The notes under the pieces were generated by a model. The model did no database searches. It saw only the letters and a program-made list of their open reading frames with translations, and was not told the origin of the DNA. Shown piece after piece: positions 136-63,835 of a stretch of DNA of 64,000 nt (position 1 is its first letter; the number at the start of each line of letters is the position of its first letter). Origin of the DNA: a virus (taxonomy: Duplodnaviria; Caudoviricetes). The translations under genes and the position numbers were made by a program. Where the stretch lies: the IMG/VR virus record IMGVR_UViG_3300021431_004509, positions 1 through 64,000 of that record, one strand, 5' to 3'.

Positions 136-184
136 AAAAAAAAAAAAAGAGAGACCACATCACCATAAGATGATGTGGTCTCTC
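136..184 (-). terminator. Rho-independent terminator ending the minus-strand late/lysis operon
   Basis: 14-bp perfect stem GAGAGACCACATCA/TGATGTGGTCTCTC (149-162/171-184), followed on the minus strand by a long U run. Confidence 0.8.
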
Positions 185-226
185 CGTGTTGTAAATTGTA
201 TATGTTTTTTACATCGAGCGGATAAT

Positions 227-51100: not shown

Positions 51101-52309
51101 TTACGACAGATCAATGTCGTAGTGGCAGCGGATACCGTTTTCATCACAAACGCATACCATCTGTTCCGGTACTCCGTAAATCCTCTTCTCCACGCAGAAG
51201 CTGTCCATTCCCTGGAAGCTGCCAGCCATCACAGTTCTCACACCCTGCACATTATCCGTCGCATTATGGTGTTTATGGCCGCACAATACTGCGTACAGCG
51301 GCTGCCGCACCATGGTCTGCAAGGACTGGACCTTACCGTATGAGCCATCGAAATCACCGTGTACCATGCAGTAGTTTTTACCGCGTATGGAGAACATCGA
51401 CATGGTTTCGTCAAGTTTGTGTTCTGCAGAATTGATCTCTATGTTCTCTATGTTTTGGAGCCTCGCCTCAAGGTACCATTCCACCAAATTGTCAAGCCGC
51501 TCAGAAACAAGCGAGTTCTCTTTGTTCGGTTCGATACGGCTGTGATTTCCAGCAACGCTTACGAAACGAACCGTCCTGAAGTGTTTGCTCAACTCAGACA
51601 GAAACCATGCAATCAGCTCCGACACGCCGATCACCTGTTCGATCACGTTCTCTTTGTTCGTTACCTGTATGCTTCTATGGATAGACCCGCTGATCAAATC
51701 ACCAGCCGCCCATACAGTACAGTTTTCACAGTGATGCAGCTCAGTGATCTCAACGATCTTATCAAGATAATCACACAGCGCACGCTTGAACACGTCGGAG
51801 TCGTATCGCCTCCATGCGTTTCTAAAGCACGCCCCATAGTGTATATCGTTCAGTGACACAAGAAGGTCTGAATCGCCGTATGGCATCGGCCCGAATGGCG
51901 GCTCCTTATCTCCGACCGGGAGGACTGGCAGCTCACCTGCTCGGATGCAGCTCTGAATAATATCATTCAGTTCTTCTTCTCTCGCGCGATCTCGCACCAT
52001 CTTGCTGTACGCCATTCTCTGGTCGTAAAATTTCTGCCGCTCTTTGCGCAGCTCGACCATCTTTTCGTCAAGCTCCTGGCTGATATCGTCTCCTGACTGT
52101 GCTGCCGCTTCTTCGCCGATCAGGTCAAGCGTTTTCTTGCTCCCATAGAGCATCCTCCGTGCCACATCGCTTGAATACGCTTTCCCGTACAGCCTTTCTG
52201 ACAATTCTGAATAGTCGTAGTCAGAGAGCGTCTTGTCATCCAGTTTCCCGTAGACGAGCCGCTTATGATATTGAAGCGCGCTCTCCCCGTCTCTTCTCTC
52301 CAGATCCAT
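51101..52309 (-). CDS. Calcineurin-like metallophosphoesterase
   Basis: DIH, GDLI, GNH, HGD, GHKH motifs. Confidence 0.85.
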   Translation of the reverse strand: MDLERRDGESALQYHKRLVYGKLDDKTLSDYDYSELSERLYGKAYSSDVARRMLYGSKKTLDLIGEEAAAQSGDDISQELDEKMVELRKERQKFYDQRMAYSKMVRDRAREEELNDIIQSCIRAGELPVLPVGDKEPPFGPMPYGDSDLLVSLNDIHYGACFRNAWRRYDSDVFKRALCDYLDKIVEITELHHCENCTVWAAGDLISGSIHRSIQVTNKENVIEQVIGVSELIAWFLSELSKHFRTVRFVSVAGNHSRIEPNKENSLVSERLDNLVEWYLEARLQNIENIEINSAEHKLDETMSMFSIRGKNYCMVHGDFDGSYGKVQSLQTMVRQPLYAVLCGHKHHNATDNVQGVRTVMAGSFQGMDSFCVEKRIYGVPEQMVCVCDENGIRCHYDIDLS

Positions 52310-58499: not shown

Positions 58500-58528
58500 A
58501 TTATACCACATGAGGTTCAATTTGTCAA
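58500..58528 (-). promoter_or_regulatory. Consensus sigmaA promoter (leftward, towards helicase/RNAP)
   Basis: Minus strand TTGACA-17 nt-TATAAT with extended TG. Confidence 0.85.
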
Positions 58529-58876
58529 GTAAAATCGCTTGACAGACCGAATGTTGCAGTTGCAAAATGAGACAAGGCTAGTTGGCGGCGTATTCGATGT
58601 TTCGCTACGTTTTCTGTCTGGACATTTCTTCTTGATCCGGGAGGGCTGAAGCCCGATCAGATCATTTGGACCCGGAAACCATTGAATTTCAACGGGATCG
58701 TTGAGGGGAAGATTTTTTCAAACGCTACCTGGGAGAAGAAGCAGCTTACATTATTTTTCCCGGTCAAGCCGCCGAAAATACCAAAAACAAGCCGCCCCGA
58801 CGGGCTGAAAGTTTCGCTTTGTAATTTTGCAACATAGCGCCATGGGGAGACGGTCAGCACAAGCCGAAAAAAAATC

Positions 58877-58907
58877 AGACTGTAACGCCGTTTTACCTTT
58901 GGGGACA
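58877..58907 (-). repeat. 31-bp motif copy 1 (inverted relative to copies 2 and 3)
   Basis: Reverse complement TGTCCCCAAAGGTAAAACGGCGTTACAGTCT, 30/31 identical to 60180-60210. Confidence 0.9.
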
Positions 58908-58925
58908 GATAACAAAAATTTTTTC

Positions 58926-58954
58926 TTGACAAATACGATTGACGCCCCTATAAT
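58926..58954 (+). promoter_or_regulatory. Consensus sigmaA promoter for the sigma-like gene
   Basis: TTGACA-17 nt-TATAAT. Confidence 0.85.
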
Positions 58955-59030: not shown

Positions 59031-60050
59031 ATGAAAAAAACCGCTTTAACTCTTGCCGTCCGTAGCATCAAACGCCGTAACAGTGCCGAAAGAAAGTTGA
59101 TTAATAACCGCTTTTACTATGAGTACAAATTCAACGAAAGCGGCGAATATGTTTCCGACGGCCTGCAAGCCCTGCACAAGTCCGACAAACGCTTTTATAT
59201 CTACATTCCCGCAACAATCGCAAGCGCCGACAATTCGCCTATTTCTGACTTTGGACAAATGTACATGCTGACGCTTGCATATCGCTTTACCGCTCGCGCA
59301 CTGCTGACAAACTATCAGAAATCCGGTCTTGTCATGCTGGACACTCTTTATAAGCAAGTCAAAGCACAGGGGTCAATGCTTTTCGGTCAAGCCATGTTTG
59401 CCGAAATTGAAACGGAATGCAAGTACAGTTACCGCTATTTTGACAGCAAACTGCACAAATTTTTCCAGCGTCAAACGCCGAAAATGAATCAGCGCATTAT
59501 TCACGACGACGCAAAAGAATTTGCATATAACGCAAGCTATGACAAGTCAAAAACAGTTGACGAATACGATGTATTCCAAGACGTAGAAGATTTGCTTTCC
59601 GCCGCACTTGAAAGAATGACAATTCTTGTTAGGGCTGGACAAATCAAGAATTACTGTGATTTTTCGTTACATTCCAGCGCTATTTATGCAGCTATCAACA
59701 GAGAAATTACATATACAAGAACAATTACAGCGCAAATGTCCGATAATGTCCGCATTTTCGACGAAAACGGACTTGAAAGAATCGTTTCCGCGATTTACTT
59801 TGACGAGCACGAAAAGCTTTCAGTTGATGCAATCCTGCAAGAGCTTGCCGGCGTTATGAAAACGCTTTTCCCCCGCTTGAATGTCGAGAAAGCTATTCTT
59901 GCATATCGCAAAACGCTTGACGGTTTCACCATGCGCGAAATTGGAAACGAGCTTGCAGTTGACCATAAACAGATCGTTAGATGGTCAAAAAGTGTCGAAT
60001 ATGCACTTGAAAGCGTCGAATTTGCCGAAAAAGTGTCCGAAATGGTATAA
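59031..60050 (+). CDS. Divergent ECF-sigma-like transcription factor
   Basis: 'DVEDLLSAALERM' resembles region 2; C-terminal 'LDGFTMREIGNELAVDHKQIVRW' resembles the region-4 HTH; long unique N-terminus. Confidence 0.6.
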   Translation: MKKTALTLAVRSIKRRNSAERKLINNRFYYEYKFNESGEYVSDGLQALHKSDKRFYIYIPATIASADNSPISDFGQMYMLTLAYRFTARALLTNYQKSGLVMLDTLYKQVKAQGSMLFGQAMFAEIETECKYSYRYFDSKLHKFFQRQTPKMNQRIIHDDAKEFAYNASYDKSKTVDEYDVFQDVEDLLSAALERMTILVRAGQIKNYCDFSLHSSAIYAAINREITYTRTITAQMSDNVRIFDENGLERIVSAIYFDEHEKLSVDAILQELAGVMKTLFPRLNVEKAILAYRKTLDGFTMREIGNELAVDHKQIVRWSKSVEYALESVEFAEKVSEMV

Positions 60051-60094: not shown

Positions 60095-60137
60095 CGCCCC
60101 TGACGGCCTGCACAGCGGCCTGACGGCCACGAGCGCC

Positions 60138-60345
60138 CCTGACGGCCTGACGGCCTGACGAAAGAAAATTTTCGTCAAGTGTCCCCAAAGGTCAAACGGC
60201 GTTACAGTCTAAGTGTAAGCGGTCAGCGCTTGCAGAAAACGCCTGACGGCCTGACGGCCTGACGAAAGAAAATTTTCGTCAAGTGTCCCCAAAGGTCAAA
60301 CGGCGTTACAGTCTAAGTGTAAGCGGTCAGCGCTTGCAGAAAACG
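60138..60345 (+). repeat. Perfect 104-bp tandem duplication carrying CCTGACGG 8-mers, the palindrome TGACGAAA-N6-TTTCGTCA and the 31-bp motif
   Basis: Units start at 60138 and 60242; motif copies at 60180-60210 and 60284-60314. Confidence 0.9.
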
Positions 60346-60757
60346 CACCACCGAGCGCAAGTCGGTGTGAGATCATGCAGCTAACTGCATGTAACCTTGT
60401 GCATAATCAAGGCGTCGCCAGTGGATGGGAGTAGGCCCATTGTTCGGATAGTGAAAGCCGCTGTGAGTGCTGAGTATCGGCAGCCGGCCGTGTATAGCTT
60501 CGGCCGTGACAATGTGATACCGTCACATTCGACACGCTGTCGCGCTGCGCCCTACCGCGTCAAAATTGGGGCGATATATCCAAATGATTTCAGCCTTGCG
60601 CCGTGGTGCGTGTACACGTTTCCGACGTGTACGTTTATCCGGCATATCTCCGATGTGACGGATCGCATGTAATCGGCGCTTGGCTGATTGAAATTGATAT
60701 ATTTTACACACGAAAGCGTGTGGTAGAGCGCCCGCCTGATTACTCCGGCGGGCGTTG
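60318..60757 (+). ncRNA. Candidate large structured ncRNA or 5' leader
   Basis: More than 10 consecutive hairpins and a multibranch domain (60588-60693); no credible ORF. Confidence 0.55.
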
Positions 60758-60804: not shown

Positions 60805-61578
60805 ATGGCTGAAGAAAAAACCCTGAAGACGATGTATAACGAGGTGATCGCTAATGCGAACGCCGTCGTCGTCGCGATGAATGAGCACAAGCCTCAGAAA
60901 GAGGTCAAAGCGCTCAAAAAGGTTTGCAAGGAGTCGGTCGATCTCTATAACGATCGCCTTGCAAAGGCGTACTACATCCGGCTCTCCGAGGAGCATGGCC
61001 ACGACGCTGTCAAGGTCGCTCTTGAGGCCGAGGAGACCGCAATCCCCGATGCAATCGGCATCTCTTTCAAGGTGACTGATGACGATGTCGCCTTGTTCAG
61101 CGAAAACAAGCCCATCGTGAAGATGAACCTCGTCAAGATGCAGCAGGCTATCGGGCCTGAGTACTTTCACAACAAAGACTGGTTTGCCCGCGTCAATGTC
61201 CTTGCCCGGCTTATGGCGGTCGCTCTGAATGAGGAGCTCGGCGGCAGTGCCACGTTCCAGTACATCCTCGATGAATCCGCGAAAGAATTCAAGCTCAGCG
61301 CCGACGCCGATCCGAAGTCGGTCAAGTCCATGGTCAAGGCGTTCCAGCAGGTCATCGACGACGTCCTGTGGATCGACACGCTCGATAAGAGCGGGAACCA
61401 TGTCAACGGCATCAAGTTTACCTCGAAGCAGTGGGCCTATATCCGCGACTGCATGAGCAAGCAGGGCGGGAAGATCGGTGAAGTCCTGTACGGTTCCCCG
61501 GCAAAATGCACCGAGCTCGTTGCGGATTGCATCCACCTGATTCTGACCAACAAGGGCTGCACCCTCAAGGTCGGATAA
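60805..61578 (+). CDS. Highly expressed early hypothetical protein
   Basis: AAAGGAG SD; strong codon bias. Confidence 0.8.
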   Translation: MAEEKTLKTMYNEVIANANAVVVAMNEHKPQKEVKALKKVCKESVDLYNDRLAKAYYIRLSEEHGHDAVKVALEAEETAIPDAIGISFKVTDDDVALFSENKPIVKMNLVKMQQAIGPEYFHNKDWFARVNVLARLMAVALNEELGGSATFQYILDESAKEFKLSADADPKSVKSMVKAFQQVIDDVLWIDTLDKSGNHVNGIKFTSKQWAYIRDCMSKQGGKIGEVLYGSPAKCTELVADCIHLILTNKGCTLKVG

Positions 61579-61593
61579 TTCAATCGGCCACCG

Positions 61594-61625
61594 GGCGGGG
61601 ATGAAAATCCCCGCCCACGGTTTTT
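61594..61625 (+). terminator. Terminator-like hairpin
   Basis: GGGCGGGGAT-GAAA-ATCCCCGCCC then ACGGTTTTT. Confidence 0.55.
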
Positions 61626-61703
61626 GACGATCGGCAACGTCTGCCCATTCGGTTGGGTTTTTGCCGACGGTTTAGGGCTGCTGTCCGATAACAAGCCATT
61701 TAT

Positions 61704-61755
61704 GGCTCCATGCACAAGCGTCCACGTCGCGGGGCTGGGTTCGGCAGATTGTGCA
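61704..61755 (+). ncRNA. Minimal HDV-like self-cleaving ribozyme 1
   Basis: P1 GGCTCC/GGGGCT (G1.U), P2 TGCACAA/TTGTGCA, P3 GCG/CGC, L3 TCCACGT, P1.1 CC/GG, J4/2 CAGA. Confidence 0.8.
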
Positions 61756-61779
61756 ATCTATCGACGGGGGTTTGGTTTT

Positions 61780-61938
61780 ATGTCCTACAAGATTCGTATC
61801 GAACGGATTTCCGACGGCGAATCGTTCGGGGAATCTGACCTTATCCCGGTCGCAGATATCGGCGAGTATCTCAAGGTCTTATCTAAGCCGAGTATGTTCG
61901 GCGGCGGGGATTTTCGTTTCGTACTCATCCCGGCATAA
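61780..61938 (+). CDS. Small early protein (MSYKIRIER...)
   Basis: 52 aa, GGGGG SD-like run, just 3' of ribozyme 1. Confidence 0.55.
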   Translation: MSYKIRIERISDGESFGESDLIPVADIGEYLKVLSKPSMFGGGDFRFVLIPA

Positions 61939-61978
61939 AATCGCGGGTTTCTAAAACGTATCGAAAGTGAGGGTTTTT

Positions 61979-62173
61979 ATGTCCTATGAACTGTTTTGCT
62001 CCAAAGTGCGGGGTATTTGTTCTCGCGCTGGGTTATCCGCGGTTTTCTCCCATGAGGACGGGAAACATGTGGCGAGGGTTTCCGATGGTTGCATCATTAT
62101 CGGGAATTCTGTCGCACCGTCTGTCGTGATTCGTGATCCACTGCGGAATCATTGCTTCAGAACTGCAATTTGA
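61979..62173 (+). CDS. Small early protein (MSYELFCSK...), paralog of 62301..62492
   Basis: GAGGG SD; shared 'MSYELF...FS...G...A....G..I.GNS..PSV.I'. Confidence 0.7.
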   Translation: MSYELFCSKVRGICSRAGLSAVFSHEDGKHVARVSDGCIIIGNSVAPSVVIRDPLRNHCFRTAI

Positions 62174-62220
62174 TTTCTTCACCATTCCTCCTTTGTTTTG
62201 GCGGGGCTTATGCCACGCCA

Positions 62221-62270
62221 CCTTAATGCAGCCGATGCCGGTCACAAGCCCGGATAAATGCAGAGTGGGG
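62221..62270 (+). ncRNA. Twister (type P1) self-cleaving ribozyme
   Basis: CCT-TAA-TGCA-GC-CGAT-GCCGG-TCAC-AA-GC-CCGG-ATAAA-TGCA-GA-GTG-GGG follows the twister layout: UAA cleavage loop, P2 TGCA/TGCA, P4 CCGG/CCGG, pseudoknot CAC/GTG. Confidence 0.85.
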
Positions 62271-62300
62271 AATTTTATAATTGAATATCGGGGTGATCCC

Positions 62301-62492
62301 ATGTCTTACGAACTATTTAAGGACCGCTGTATTCTTATCGCGCATAGACATGGCGTGGAAACAGATATCGAATTCAGTGACGAGGGTGGGTATTACACAG
62401 CAACATTCCAGAACGGGGATGTCATCGTCGGGAATTCGATATGCCCGTCTGTGCGGATTTTCCATAAGAACGGAAGAATGGAGCGCGTATAA
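62301..62492 (+). CDS. Small early protein (MSYELFKDR...)
   Basis: GGGGTGA SD; paralog of 61979..62173. Confidence 0.7.
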   Translation: MSYELFKDRCILIAHRHGVETDIEFSDEGGYYTATFQNGDVIVGNSICPSVRIFHKNGRMERV

Positions 62493-62550
62493 AATAGAAA
62501 AACTGTGGATTTTTGTGCGGTTACATGTTAAACTGCACAAGGGTGATTGA

Positions 62551-63267
62551 ATGAAGTATCAGGAAATACGTGAGGCATTTCCGGAGTGTGGGGTTACTGT
62601 TTCTCCGCAGGGAATATCGCTGGTTTTTCCGTATTATATTCCAGACCGCTGGGTTAGTGCGCCTGTAAATGAGGATCAATTCCATAATATGCAGGTTTTT
62701 CAAGAACTCCTGTCATGTGATTCCATTGAGATTGCTTTATCCCCCGGGAAATACGCTAAAATGCTTTTTAATATGCAAATCGCTATAGGGAATTCGCTGA
62801 TGTTTCCACCATTAAACAAACCGCAATCAGGTGATGAAATTATAGCGGAGGCTTCGGAGGGCTTTTTAGCTGACGAGGAATTTGTTGATATATTTAAGGA
62901 TATTGATCCTGGAAATATTGAGGAAATCCTCAACGGTTTTCAGGAATTGAATGAGCGTAAAAAGGGGATCATTGCGAAGACTCCGATGACACTAAGTGGT
63001 GTCCAGCGTTGGAAAATTTTACGCGAGGAATCAGAGGAATTTCTTAAAAGGAATTTGCCGTGGGAAAGATCGATTGAACCTCCAACGAAAGGAATCGACT
63101 TCGGCACGATCGAATTTTACATAGAAGCTAGTCAACTGCTGGTTTTTAAGATATGTCAAACCGATATGCCGGCATTTCGTAAAATGTGTTTCGCGGCTGC
63201 TAGTTTTGATATCTCAAGCCATATCGAAAATGATTTTGCGAACATGGTTTTTGATGTTTTTTCATAA
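62551..63267 (+). CDS. Hypothetical protein
   Basis: 238-aa ORF with SD, visibly more AT-rich than its neighbours. Confidence 0.65.
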   Translation: MKYQEIREAFPECGVTVSPQGISLVFPYYIPDRWVSAPVNEDQFHNMQVFQELLSCDSIEIALSPGKYAKMLFNMQIAIGNSLMFPPLNKPQSGDEIIAEASEGFLADEEFVDIFKDIDPGNIEEILNGFQELNERKKGIIAKTPMTLSGVQRWKILREESEEFLKRNLPWERSIEPPTKGIDFGTIEFYIEASQLLVFKICQTDMPAFRKMCFAAASFDISSHIENDFANMVFDVFS

Positions 63268-63291
63268 TAGGTAATTCAATAATTATCATGT

Positions 63292-63318
63292 ACACCACCG
63301 AAACTCGGTGGTGTTTTT
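63292..63318 (+). terminator. Rho-independent terminator
   Basis: ACACCACCGA-AAC-TCGGTGGTGT-TTTT. Confidence 0.75.
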
Positions 63319-63387
63319 AATTGCTATCATTCTTTTTCCATACCTCCTTTCTTTCTCATCGGGGCGGGTTTTCCATCCGCCCCACAT

Positions 63388-63441
63388 GGCACCATGTACA
63401 AGCCTCCACGCGGCGGTGCTGGATAATCAACCGATTGTACA
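63388..63441 (+). ncRNA. Minimal HDV-like self-cleaving ribozyme 2
   Basis: P1 GGCACC/GGTGCT, P2 TGTACAA/TTGTACA, P3 GCC/GGC, L3 TCCACGC, P1.1 CC/GG, J4/2 CCGA; covaries with ribozyme 1. Confidence 0.8.
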
Positions 63442-63535
63442 ATAGGATGACGCCCGGCCAGGCTCCGTATGGACATGGGCAATAGCCGCCATGGCCGGGG
63501 CATCCGACAAAAAAAGGGGTTATGCGTGGAACGAT

Positions 63536-63835
63536 ATGTCGTACATGGTATCAAAGAATACCGTAGTTTTCGGCGGACATGAAACGTGGTTAAAGGCCAT
63601 AAGGCTGGAATTGTCCGGGAAAATAAGGTATGTGGGACGCGAGGAATCGTTTAACACTCTGATTATCAGGAACGCAGAGGTTATCTGGATTCAGCCGAAT
63701 GCCATCGCTCACAAGCAGTATTACAAAATAATAAACGTATCCAGAAGATACGGGAAACCTGTGCGGTATTTCAAAAATGCAAGTGCTTCTATCTGTATCA
63801 AACAGATAAAGGAAGCAGACGGCGGAAACGCATAA
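63536..63835 (+). CDS. Small alpha/beta protein (DUF2325-like)
   Basis: 'VVFGGH..W', 'A.VIW.Q.NAI.H..YY', 'PV.YF'. Confidence 0.6.
   Translation: MSYMVSKNTVVFGGHETWLKAIRLELSGKIRYVGREESFNTLIIRNAEVIWIQPNAIAHKQYYKIINVSRRYGKPVRYFKNASASICIKQIKEADGGNA

Follow-up and report, generated by a model that had tools for sequence, protein, structure and literature searches.

Three ribozymes from two known classes lie between the small genes of a tailed gut phage, a setting of a type already known, on the plus strand of the window analysed here, which covers the first 64 kb of an IMG/VR virus record (IMGVR_UViG_3300021431_004509; 117,148 bp, rated 99% complete). Two are minimal ribozymes resembling that of hepatitis delta virus (HDV-like), at 61704–61755 (HDV1) and 63388–63441 (HDV2), and the third is a type-P1 twister without P3, at 62220–62271. 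Their predicted cuts belong to a layout of hairpin, cut, and open ribosome-binding site that recurs in other phages, and at matching junctions of related phages one ribozyme class takes the place of the other. Judging from sequence, we consider it fairly probable that the RNA cleaves itself between the genes of this conserved module, and we infer that cleavage would occur in the cell and would affect RNA stability or translation. Phage ribozyme clusters and the processing idea itself are already in the literature. The processing of polycistronic transcripts by bacterial and phage ribozymes has been proposed (PMC6765202, section 13), and “isolated” minimal HDV-like ribozymes have been reported near phage open reading frames (ORFs) of unknown function (PMC10879173).

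The two HDV-like copies, read from the sequence, have the same anatomy, with a P1 of 6 bp, a P2 of 6 bp, a P3 of 3 bp, and a 7-nt L3 (UCCACGY). The elements follow one another in the order P1, P2, P3, L3, P3', P1', GG (P1.1), a short linker, C-N-G-A, and P2'. The predicted cuts fall at 61703/61704 and 63387/63388. One two-sided compensatory change in each stem distinguishes HDV1 from HDV2 (U-G to A-U in P1, C-G to U-A in P2, and G-C to C-G in P3), and the earlier note on this DNA, which had proposed two minimal folds with such changes, placed both exactly. After IMG/VR had been scanned for a sequence pattern, model R1, based on the two window copies, yielded 17 further copies in seven other phage contigs: five in L109, four in L081, three in L118, two in L032, and one each in L022, L035, and L061. 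A second model, built only from these 17 copies (R3), recovered HDV1 with 66.6 bits (E 7.5e-17) and HDV2 with 76.2 bits (E 1.4e-19), the next match in the genome scoring 14.8 bits. The scan for more copies that had been suggested was thus run with both R1 and R3 and found no HDV-like copy in the 117-kb genome beyond these two. R3 also matched, with 60 bits, positions 164–217 (minus strand) of contig L241, which is Flavonifractor sp. An82 (NZ_NFHG01000001.1), a cultured gut Clostridia genome; this copy hints, if only weakly, at which host group these phages infect.

Across the 19 copies, the structure including the pseudoknot pairs in 93.6% of cells, against 78% in shuffled alignments (0 of 500 shuffles reached the observed value). 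Covariation scores 0.42, compared with 0.13 in shuffles and 0.03–0.15 for slid partners. Two-sided changes occur in 11 of the 19 base pairs. P1 and P3 pair in 100% of cells and P2 in 83.8%, the failures in P2 arising because four P4-bearing copies are misaligned at their 3' ends; P2 and P1.1 were absent from the search model and hence not fitted. Covariation therefore backs P1, P2, and P3 of the nested double pseudoknot that characterizes the HDV-like class. The GG and the CC of L3 that would form P1.1 are present in both window copies and in 18–19 of 19 relatives, the candidate pairs being invariant so that no covariation is measurable. The closing G1-U pair of P1 (G61704-U61736 in HDV1 and G63388-U63420 in HDV2) is kept in 17 of the 19 copies, and the alignment column of the candidate catalytic cytosine in J4/2 (C61745 and C63431) is C in 15 of 15 minimal copies.

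Rfam's HDV-like models require P4, and on the window copies they gave only weak matches (18.8 bits for CPEB3 and at most 11.5 bits for RF02682) that reached no curated cut-off. A P4-bearing relative in L081 (9385–9454) passes the RF02682 cut-off (46.4 versus 44), which ties the HDV-like set to a curated family. On this evidence both window copies are very probably true HDV-like ribozymes. Two further leads were set aside. A loose hand-written HDV descriptor produced hundreds of chance matches and was dropped, and a weak RF02682 match at 52103–52154 (minus strand, 14.6 bits) lies inside an exonuclease gene, was recovered by no custom model, and is taken as chance.

The twister, which the earlier note had read at 62221–62270, aligns end to end with RF03160 (56.7 bits; E 1.5e-11 for the region and 1.9e-13 for the genome). 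All essential stems are present, P2 with 4 bp, P4 with 3 bp, and P1 with 3 bp and one mismatch. Its predicted cut, U62224/A62225, has the expected U-A, and the GC bases of T2, UAA, AAGCC, and UAAA all agree with the consensus. The T1 pseudoknot, CAC at 62243–62245 with GUG at 62265–62267, is kept by a double change from the consensus CCC/GGG. A variant scan placed the same twister variant in more than 115 IMG/VR loci. Among 120 parsed copies of the subtype, U precedes the cut in 117 and P2 takes at least five different complementary forms; P3 is absent in 74, and 66 of these have the same 9-nt linker as the window twister. At gathering thresholds, a Rfam scan of the whole window returned no match at all, and the three ribozymes surface only at E-value thresholds or with custom models. 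In the cmsearch check put forward earlier, the twister has a low E-value but a score below the cut-off, and the HDV-like copies give only weak matches.

We then considered what surrounds the predicted cuts. The twister starts 46 nt past a stop codon and the two HDV-like copies 120–125 nt past theirs, with a terminator between. GC hairpins end 4 nt before the twister cut (62199–62220; −14.1 kcal/mol, z −2.4) and 4 nt before the HDV2 cut (63361–63383; −17.8 kcal/mol, z −4.4). A hairpin of −11.7 kcal/mol or stronger precedes 12 of 21 related cuts, ending 0–4 nt away, and upstream energies average −12.5 compared with −6.6 in control random windows (p 2e-7). The same holds for 111 distinct phage twisters of this subtype, in which the 40 nt upstream average −12.35 kcal/mol (controls, −6.36) and reach −12 kcal/mol or below in 59% of cases, versus 10% of controls (p 5e-30). 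On the other side of the cut, the 40 nt downstream of these twisters average −3.7, less folded than controls, and 74 of the 111 have a Shine-Dalgarno sequence with a start codon no more than 60 nt downstream (median 25 nt). This asymmetry, a hairpin before the cut and an open ribosome-binding site after it, is expected if the hairpin becomes the 3' end of the upstream RNA, and it speaks against a hairpin that merely shields the ribozyme during folding. Since 59% of the 111 other phage twisters follow it, the hairpin-before-cut rule is probably general; we have not met it in the literature, for which no dedicated search was made.

Related phages show that the two classes can exchange places. 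Four IMG/VR contigs (L081, L109, L118, and L032) have the cassette in common with the window, including homologues of the 257-aa protein encoded upstream of HDV1 (22–24% identity to the window protein and 26–43% among themselves). A ribozyme always follows this gene of about 255 aa, and it is HDV-like in the window, L081, L109, and L032 and a twister in L118 (1752–1804). Likewise, behind a gene of the MSYELF family come a pyrimidine box, a GC hairpin, and then a ribozyme, the latter being the twister in the window and an HDV-like ribozyme in L081 (10235) and L109 (9028). Matching junction slots are thus filled by either class, and the interchangeability that had been proposed is seen at two junctions. 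That the same junction, with the same box and hairpin, is occupied by a twister in one phage and by an HDV-like ribozyme elsewhere suggests that the cut rather than the class of RNA is selected.

The number and order of the ribozyme and small-ORF units vary among the five related phages (from 2 to 5 HDV-like copies), as they would if the ribozymes marked the borders of mobile or shuffled gene cassettes and were selfish or recombination modules with little effect on the flanking genes. Near-identical ribozyme cores in one genome could indeed act as recombination sites. However, copies in the same genome are distinguished by compensatory changes under which the fold is preserved, a pattern that points to selection on catalysis, and the asymmetric layout of hairpin and open ribosome-binding site in the 111 twisters is unexpected for a mere recombination site. 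We consider such border elements quite improbable.

Under the reading we favor, cutting between genes, RNA polymerase would read through the junction and the ribozyme would fold and cleave, an HDV-like one at its own 5' edge and a twister 5 nt inside its 5' end. On the upstream side, the RNA would then end 0–6 nt past a stable GC hairpin with a 2',3'-cyclic phosphate, a terminus that should stop 3' exonucleases. On the downstream side, it would begin with a 5'-OH and a compact ribozyme fold, followed about 25 nt further by an unstructured ribosome-binding site. Such an end should resist 5'-end-dependent decay, and translation would initiate independently of the upstream context. Only the cut would matter in this scheme, the class of ribozyme being immaterial. 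The layout of hairpin and open ribosome-binding site accordingly predicts an upstream message protected at its 3' end and a downstream message shielded from upstream context.

Successive cuts would release RNAs of 521 nt (61704–62224) and 1163 nt (62225–63387). RtcB ligase joins 5'-OH to 2',3'-cyclic phosphate ends, and engineered circular RNA systems combine twister with RtcB. Host RtcB might circularize the phage units into exonuclease-proof mRNAs, which would make them a natural counterpart of these systems, though we see only a slim chance of this. No RtcB or RNA ligase encoded by the phage was found, so circularization would depend on the host.

Several observations weigh against cutting between genes, or against parts of it. 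The 56.7 bits of the twister lie under the Rfam gathering cut-off of 67.2, a shortfall that we attribute to the missing P3 stem; P3 is optional and is found in 78% of twisters (PMC5408937). Its P1 has only the 3 pairs and a mismatch, and the P1 of the window HDV-like copies has 6 pairs, compared with 7 in HDV. HDV1 has no pre-cut hairpin, a conserved 27-mer standing in its place. Two junctions in the same stretch, 61939–61978 and 62493–62550, have no ribozyme, so cutting is not needed at every gene. Finally, intrinsic terminators precede HDV1 and HDV2 by 78 and 65 nt. The first follows the 257-aa gene (61593–61625; a 10-bp GC stem and a T run) and the second follows the fourth ORF of the stretch (63292–63322; a 10-bp stem and a T run). 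Only read-through RNA would reach the two HDV-like copies. Of the proposal in the earlier note that the phage cuts an early polycistronic RNA gene by gene, the cutting is favored by the anatomy of the junctions (stop codon, hairpin, cut, ribozyme, open ribosome site, ORF) and a single uninterrupted RNA is weakened by the terminators; the word “early” goes back only to a consensus sigma-70 promoter at 58926–58954. Contigs from RNA libraries of two studies end at 61585–61635, at the first terminator, which is a weak hint only. None of the assembled RNA-library contigs spans any of the three ribozymes, and one X1 contig has the HDV-like core of an L118-like phage. At the second ribozyme-free junction, between the third and fourth ORFs, an 8-bp hairpin seen by eye at 62514–62539 lies just ahead of the ribosome site and may be a host RNase site.

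The 27-mer (GGGCTGCTGTCCGATAACAAGCCATTT) occupies 61675–61701, ends 2 nt before the HDV1 cut, and gave 0 matches in shuffles. Five related phages have it in identical or nearly identical form; in four of these (the window phage, L081, L109, and L118) an HDV-like ribozyme follows it directly. It may serve as a promoter, an operator, or an RNA element. In L032 it stands 40–60 nt upstream of two ribozyme-free genes, a placement like that of a promoter or operator, and together with the terminators ahead of HDV1 and HDV2 and with the sigma-like protein that the phage encodes, this would fit a different source of the RNA. The HDV-like ribozymes would trim the 5' leader of separate transcripts that start from a promoter between terminator and ribozyme, removing a short triphosphate-bearing leader and leaving a 5'-OH mRNA headed by the folded ribozyme, and no polycistronic RNA would be cut. 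However, the intervals between terminator and ribozyme showed no sigma-70-type promoter, and the 27-mer occurs once in this genome. The twister junction and most junctions of the relatives, moreover, follow a stop codon and a hairpin without a T run, and a pre-cut hairpin at such junctions makes sense only with upstream RNA present. Leader trimming is in our view unlikely, though it is the main rival to cutting between genes.

A last possibility is that each cut forms the 3' end of a non-coding RNA just upstream, as theta ribozymes do by cutting at tRNA 3' ends (PMC10879173). Two of the related copies are placed in this way. In L061 (4162–4543), a minimal HDV-like ribozyme starts at the last bases of a phage transfer-messenger RNA (tmRNA; RF00023), and in L035 (9693–10146) one starts 5 nt after a GOLLD RNA (RF02032). 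From their positions, these two ribozymes look as if they cut the 3' ends of the tmRNA and GOLLD RNA; the word tmRNA has 0 occurrences in the theta-ribozyme paper (PMC10879173). In the window, ARAGORN found no tRNA (the 12 tRNAs of the phage are at 68–92 kb), and none of the three ribozymes has an Rfam RNA upstream. The distances given above, 46 nt from a protein-gene stop codon to the twister and 120–125 nt with a terminator between for HDV1 and HDV2, also argue against it, and for the window copies we consider this origin very unlikely.

Each ribozyme lies 5' of a small ORF, as had been noted, the starts at 61780, 62301, and 63536 following by 24, 29, and 94 nt. Five ORFs, all on the plus strand, make up the stretch. 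ORF a (61780–61938, 52 aa) starts with MSY and belongs to no known family. ORFs b (61979–62173, 64 aa) and c (62301–62492, 63 aa) are paralogues of the MSYELF family, 44% identical to each other, and ORF b is related to ORFs in L109 and L081. ORF d (62551–63267, 238 aa) belongs to no known family, and ORF e (63536–63835, 99 aa) starts with MSY and shows a weak likeness to DUF2325 and phrog_11092. ORFs a–d had no match in Pfam, PHROGs, or NCBIfam, nor did ORF d in the protein atlas. The four ATG-TCN-TAY starts reported earlier (61780, 61979, 62301, and 63536) are all present and clustered. Such sites number only ten in the genome on both strands. At five of them an ORF of 40 aa or more begins, four within this 1.8 kb. 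The association of MSY starts with the ribozymes did not hold up. In related phages the homologues begin MTF, MPF, or MRT; that of ORF e in L081 aligns from residue 37 and lacks the MSY start. Since relatives do not keep these starts and ORFs b and c are paralogues, MSY does not belong to the ribozyme grammar. A long irregular hairpin (63445–63505, plus strand) separates HDV2 from the ribosome site of ORF e and lies within a 115-nt stretch (63442–63556) that folds at −42.8 kcal/mol (z −2.3). The hairpin has no Rfam match and was not seen in the relatives.

Pyrimidine boxes stand between stop codon and pre-cut hairpin at two junctions, UUCCUCCUUUG at 62185–62195 in the 3' untranslated region of ORF b and ACCUCCUUUCU at 63342–63352 before the HDV2 hairpin, both on the plus strand. 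Both match the anti-Shine-Dalgarno tail at the 3' end of 16S rRNA (ACCUCCUUUCU), and a similar box recurs at junctions in L081, L109, and L032. The box at 63342–63352 pairs with the start region of ORF e at −15.5 kcal/mol, and 3% of shuffles fold as well. Overall, pairing of the CCUCC box with neighboring translation starts gave a mixed result: 3% of shuffles did as well in one case and 0 of 300 in another, and four further cases did not differ from shuffles. Antisense ORFs behind the reverse complement of the box, which looks like a perfect ribosome-binding site, vary in length and sequence among the phages and were rejected as genes. The heptamer GGGTTTT occurs on the ribozyme strand 19 times in L118, 14 times in L081, 10 times in L032, and 5 times in L109, against 0.3–0.5 expected (10–45x), with 0–1 antisense copies. 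In the window its sense copies are at 61655, 61971, and 63366. It often forms the 5' arm and loop of pre-cut hairpins and may be the binding site of an RNA-binding protein.

The rest of the window belongs to a tailed phage, with terminase, portal, endolysin, integrase, and several giant proteins encoded on the minus strand of bases 1–58,000. Two perfect, divergent sigma-70 consensus promoters lie at 58500–58954, one of them being that at 58926–58954 mentioned above. The plus-strand module then runs from a sigma-like gene (59031–60050; weak TIGR02937 match, E 5.6e-4) through a terminator and a direct repeat, a RAGATH-16-like RNA (RF03047), and the 257-aa gene (60805–61578) to the ribozyme stretch. 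The direct repeat, two copies of about 100 bp at 60100–60340, lies just past the terminator of the sigma-like gene, and each copy has CCTGACGG repeats at its head and TGTCCCCAAAGGTC inside. The RAGATH-16-like RNA (60395–60467, plus strand) scores 46.6 bits against a cut-off of 65.6 (E 7.5e-7) and sits in a 700-nt non-coding stretch ahead of the 257-aa gene. The RAGATH-16 copy in L109 is above the cut-off (67.1 bits); a RAGATH-4-like RNA in L118 (671–798, 78.1 bits) and a RAGATH-36-like RNA in L109 (6689–6804, minus strand, 55.1 bits) are below theirs, both within ribozyme cassettes. For the 257-aa protein, the protein collection contains 13 close relatives; P0002, P0005, P0008, P0009, and P0010 are relatives with 53–71% identity to it. 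The related-loci search with it returned no relative among viral, metagenome, or genome contigs. Its predicted fold (predicted local distance difference test score, pLDDT, 85.7) had no Foldseek match in the PDB at E ≤ 0.001, and VIA-align gave only Z of about 6, confined to an N-terminal helical hairpin and uninformative. No similar DNA was found among INPHARED phages. Within the tRNA cluster of the phage lies a drum RNA (RF02958; L004:14171–14280, genome positions 77970–78079), with 57.3 bits against a cut-off of 43.

Compared with known systems, the HDV-like copies resemble the drz-Mtgn-1-type or theta ribozymes (PMC10879173) in their nested double pseudoknot, a P4 reduced to a short linker, the G1-U pair, the J4/2 cytosine, and their occurrence in animal-gut Caudoviricetes. 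Unlike these, the window copies stand between protein genes rather than next to tRNAs, have a P1 of 6 pairs, form arrays of 2–5 per module in related phages, and have junctions in common with twister. They are also like the HDV-F-prausnitzii ribozyme (RF02682) of bacteria and phages in gut Clostridia, given the L081 copy above its cut-off and the presence of this type in Flavonifractor sp. An82, but they lack P4 and score at most 11.5 bits. The twister agrees with RF03160 in P1, P2, P4, both pseudoknots, the U-A cleavage dinucleotide, and the conserved loop bases, and it departs from that consensus in having no P3 and a CAC/GUG T1. As a whole, the locus recalls the ribozyme-rich neighborhoods of bacteria and phages in which RAGATH RNAs are found, where several ribozyme classes lie close together near small phage genes (PMC6765202). 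The RAGATH-16-like RNA 1.2 kb upstream (46.6 bits) and the RAGATH-16, -36, and -4 matches in L109 and L118 fit this picture. It differs from those neighborhoods in combining HDV-like ribozymes with twister, where they combine hammerhead with twister, and in the swap of classes at matching junctions.

This cassette with its four relatives amounts to a natural experiment on what self-cleaving ribozymes do in bacteria and phages. It offers a clean, conserved test case through the class swaps at matching junctions and the hairpin-before-cut rule. A parallel may be drawn with the early polycistronic mRNA of phage T7, in which RNase III cuts between genes and leaves the upstream message ending in a hairpin. 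The ribozymes would be this phage's own counterpart of those RNase III sites, with the difference that the RNA would cut itself, without a host enzyme, and that the ends would be a 2',3'-cyclic phosphate and a 5'-OH.

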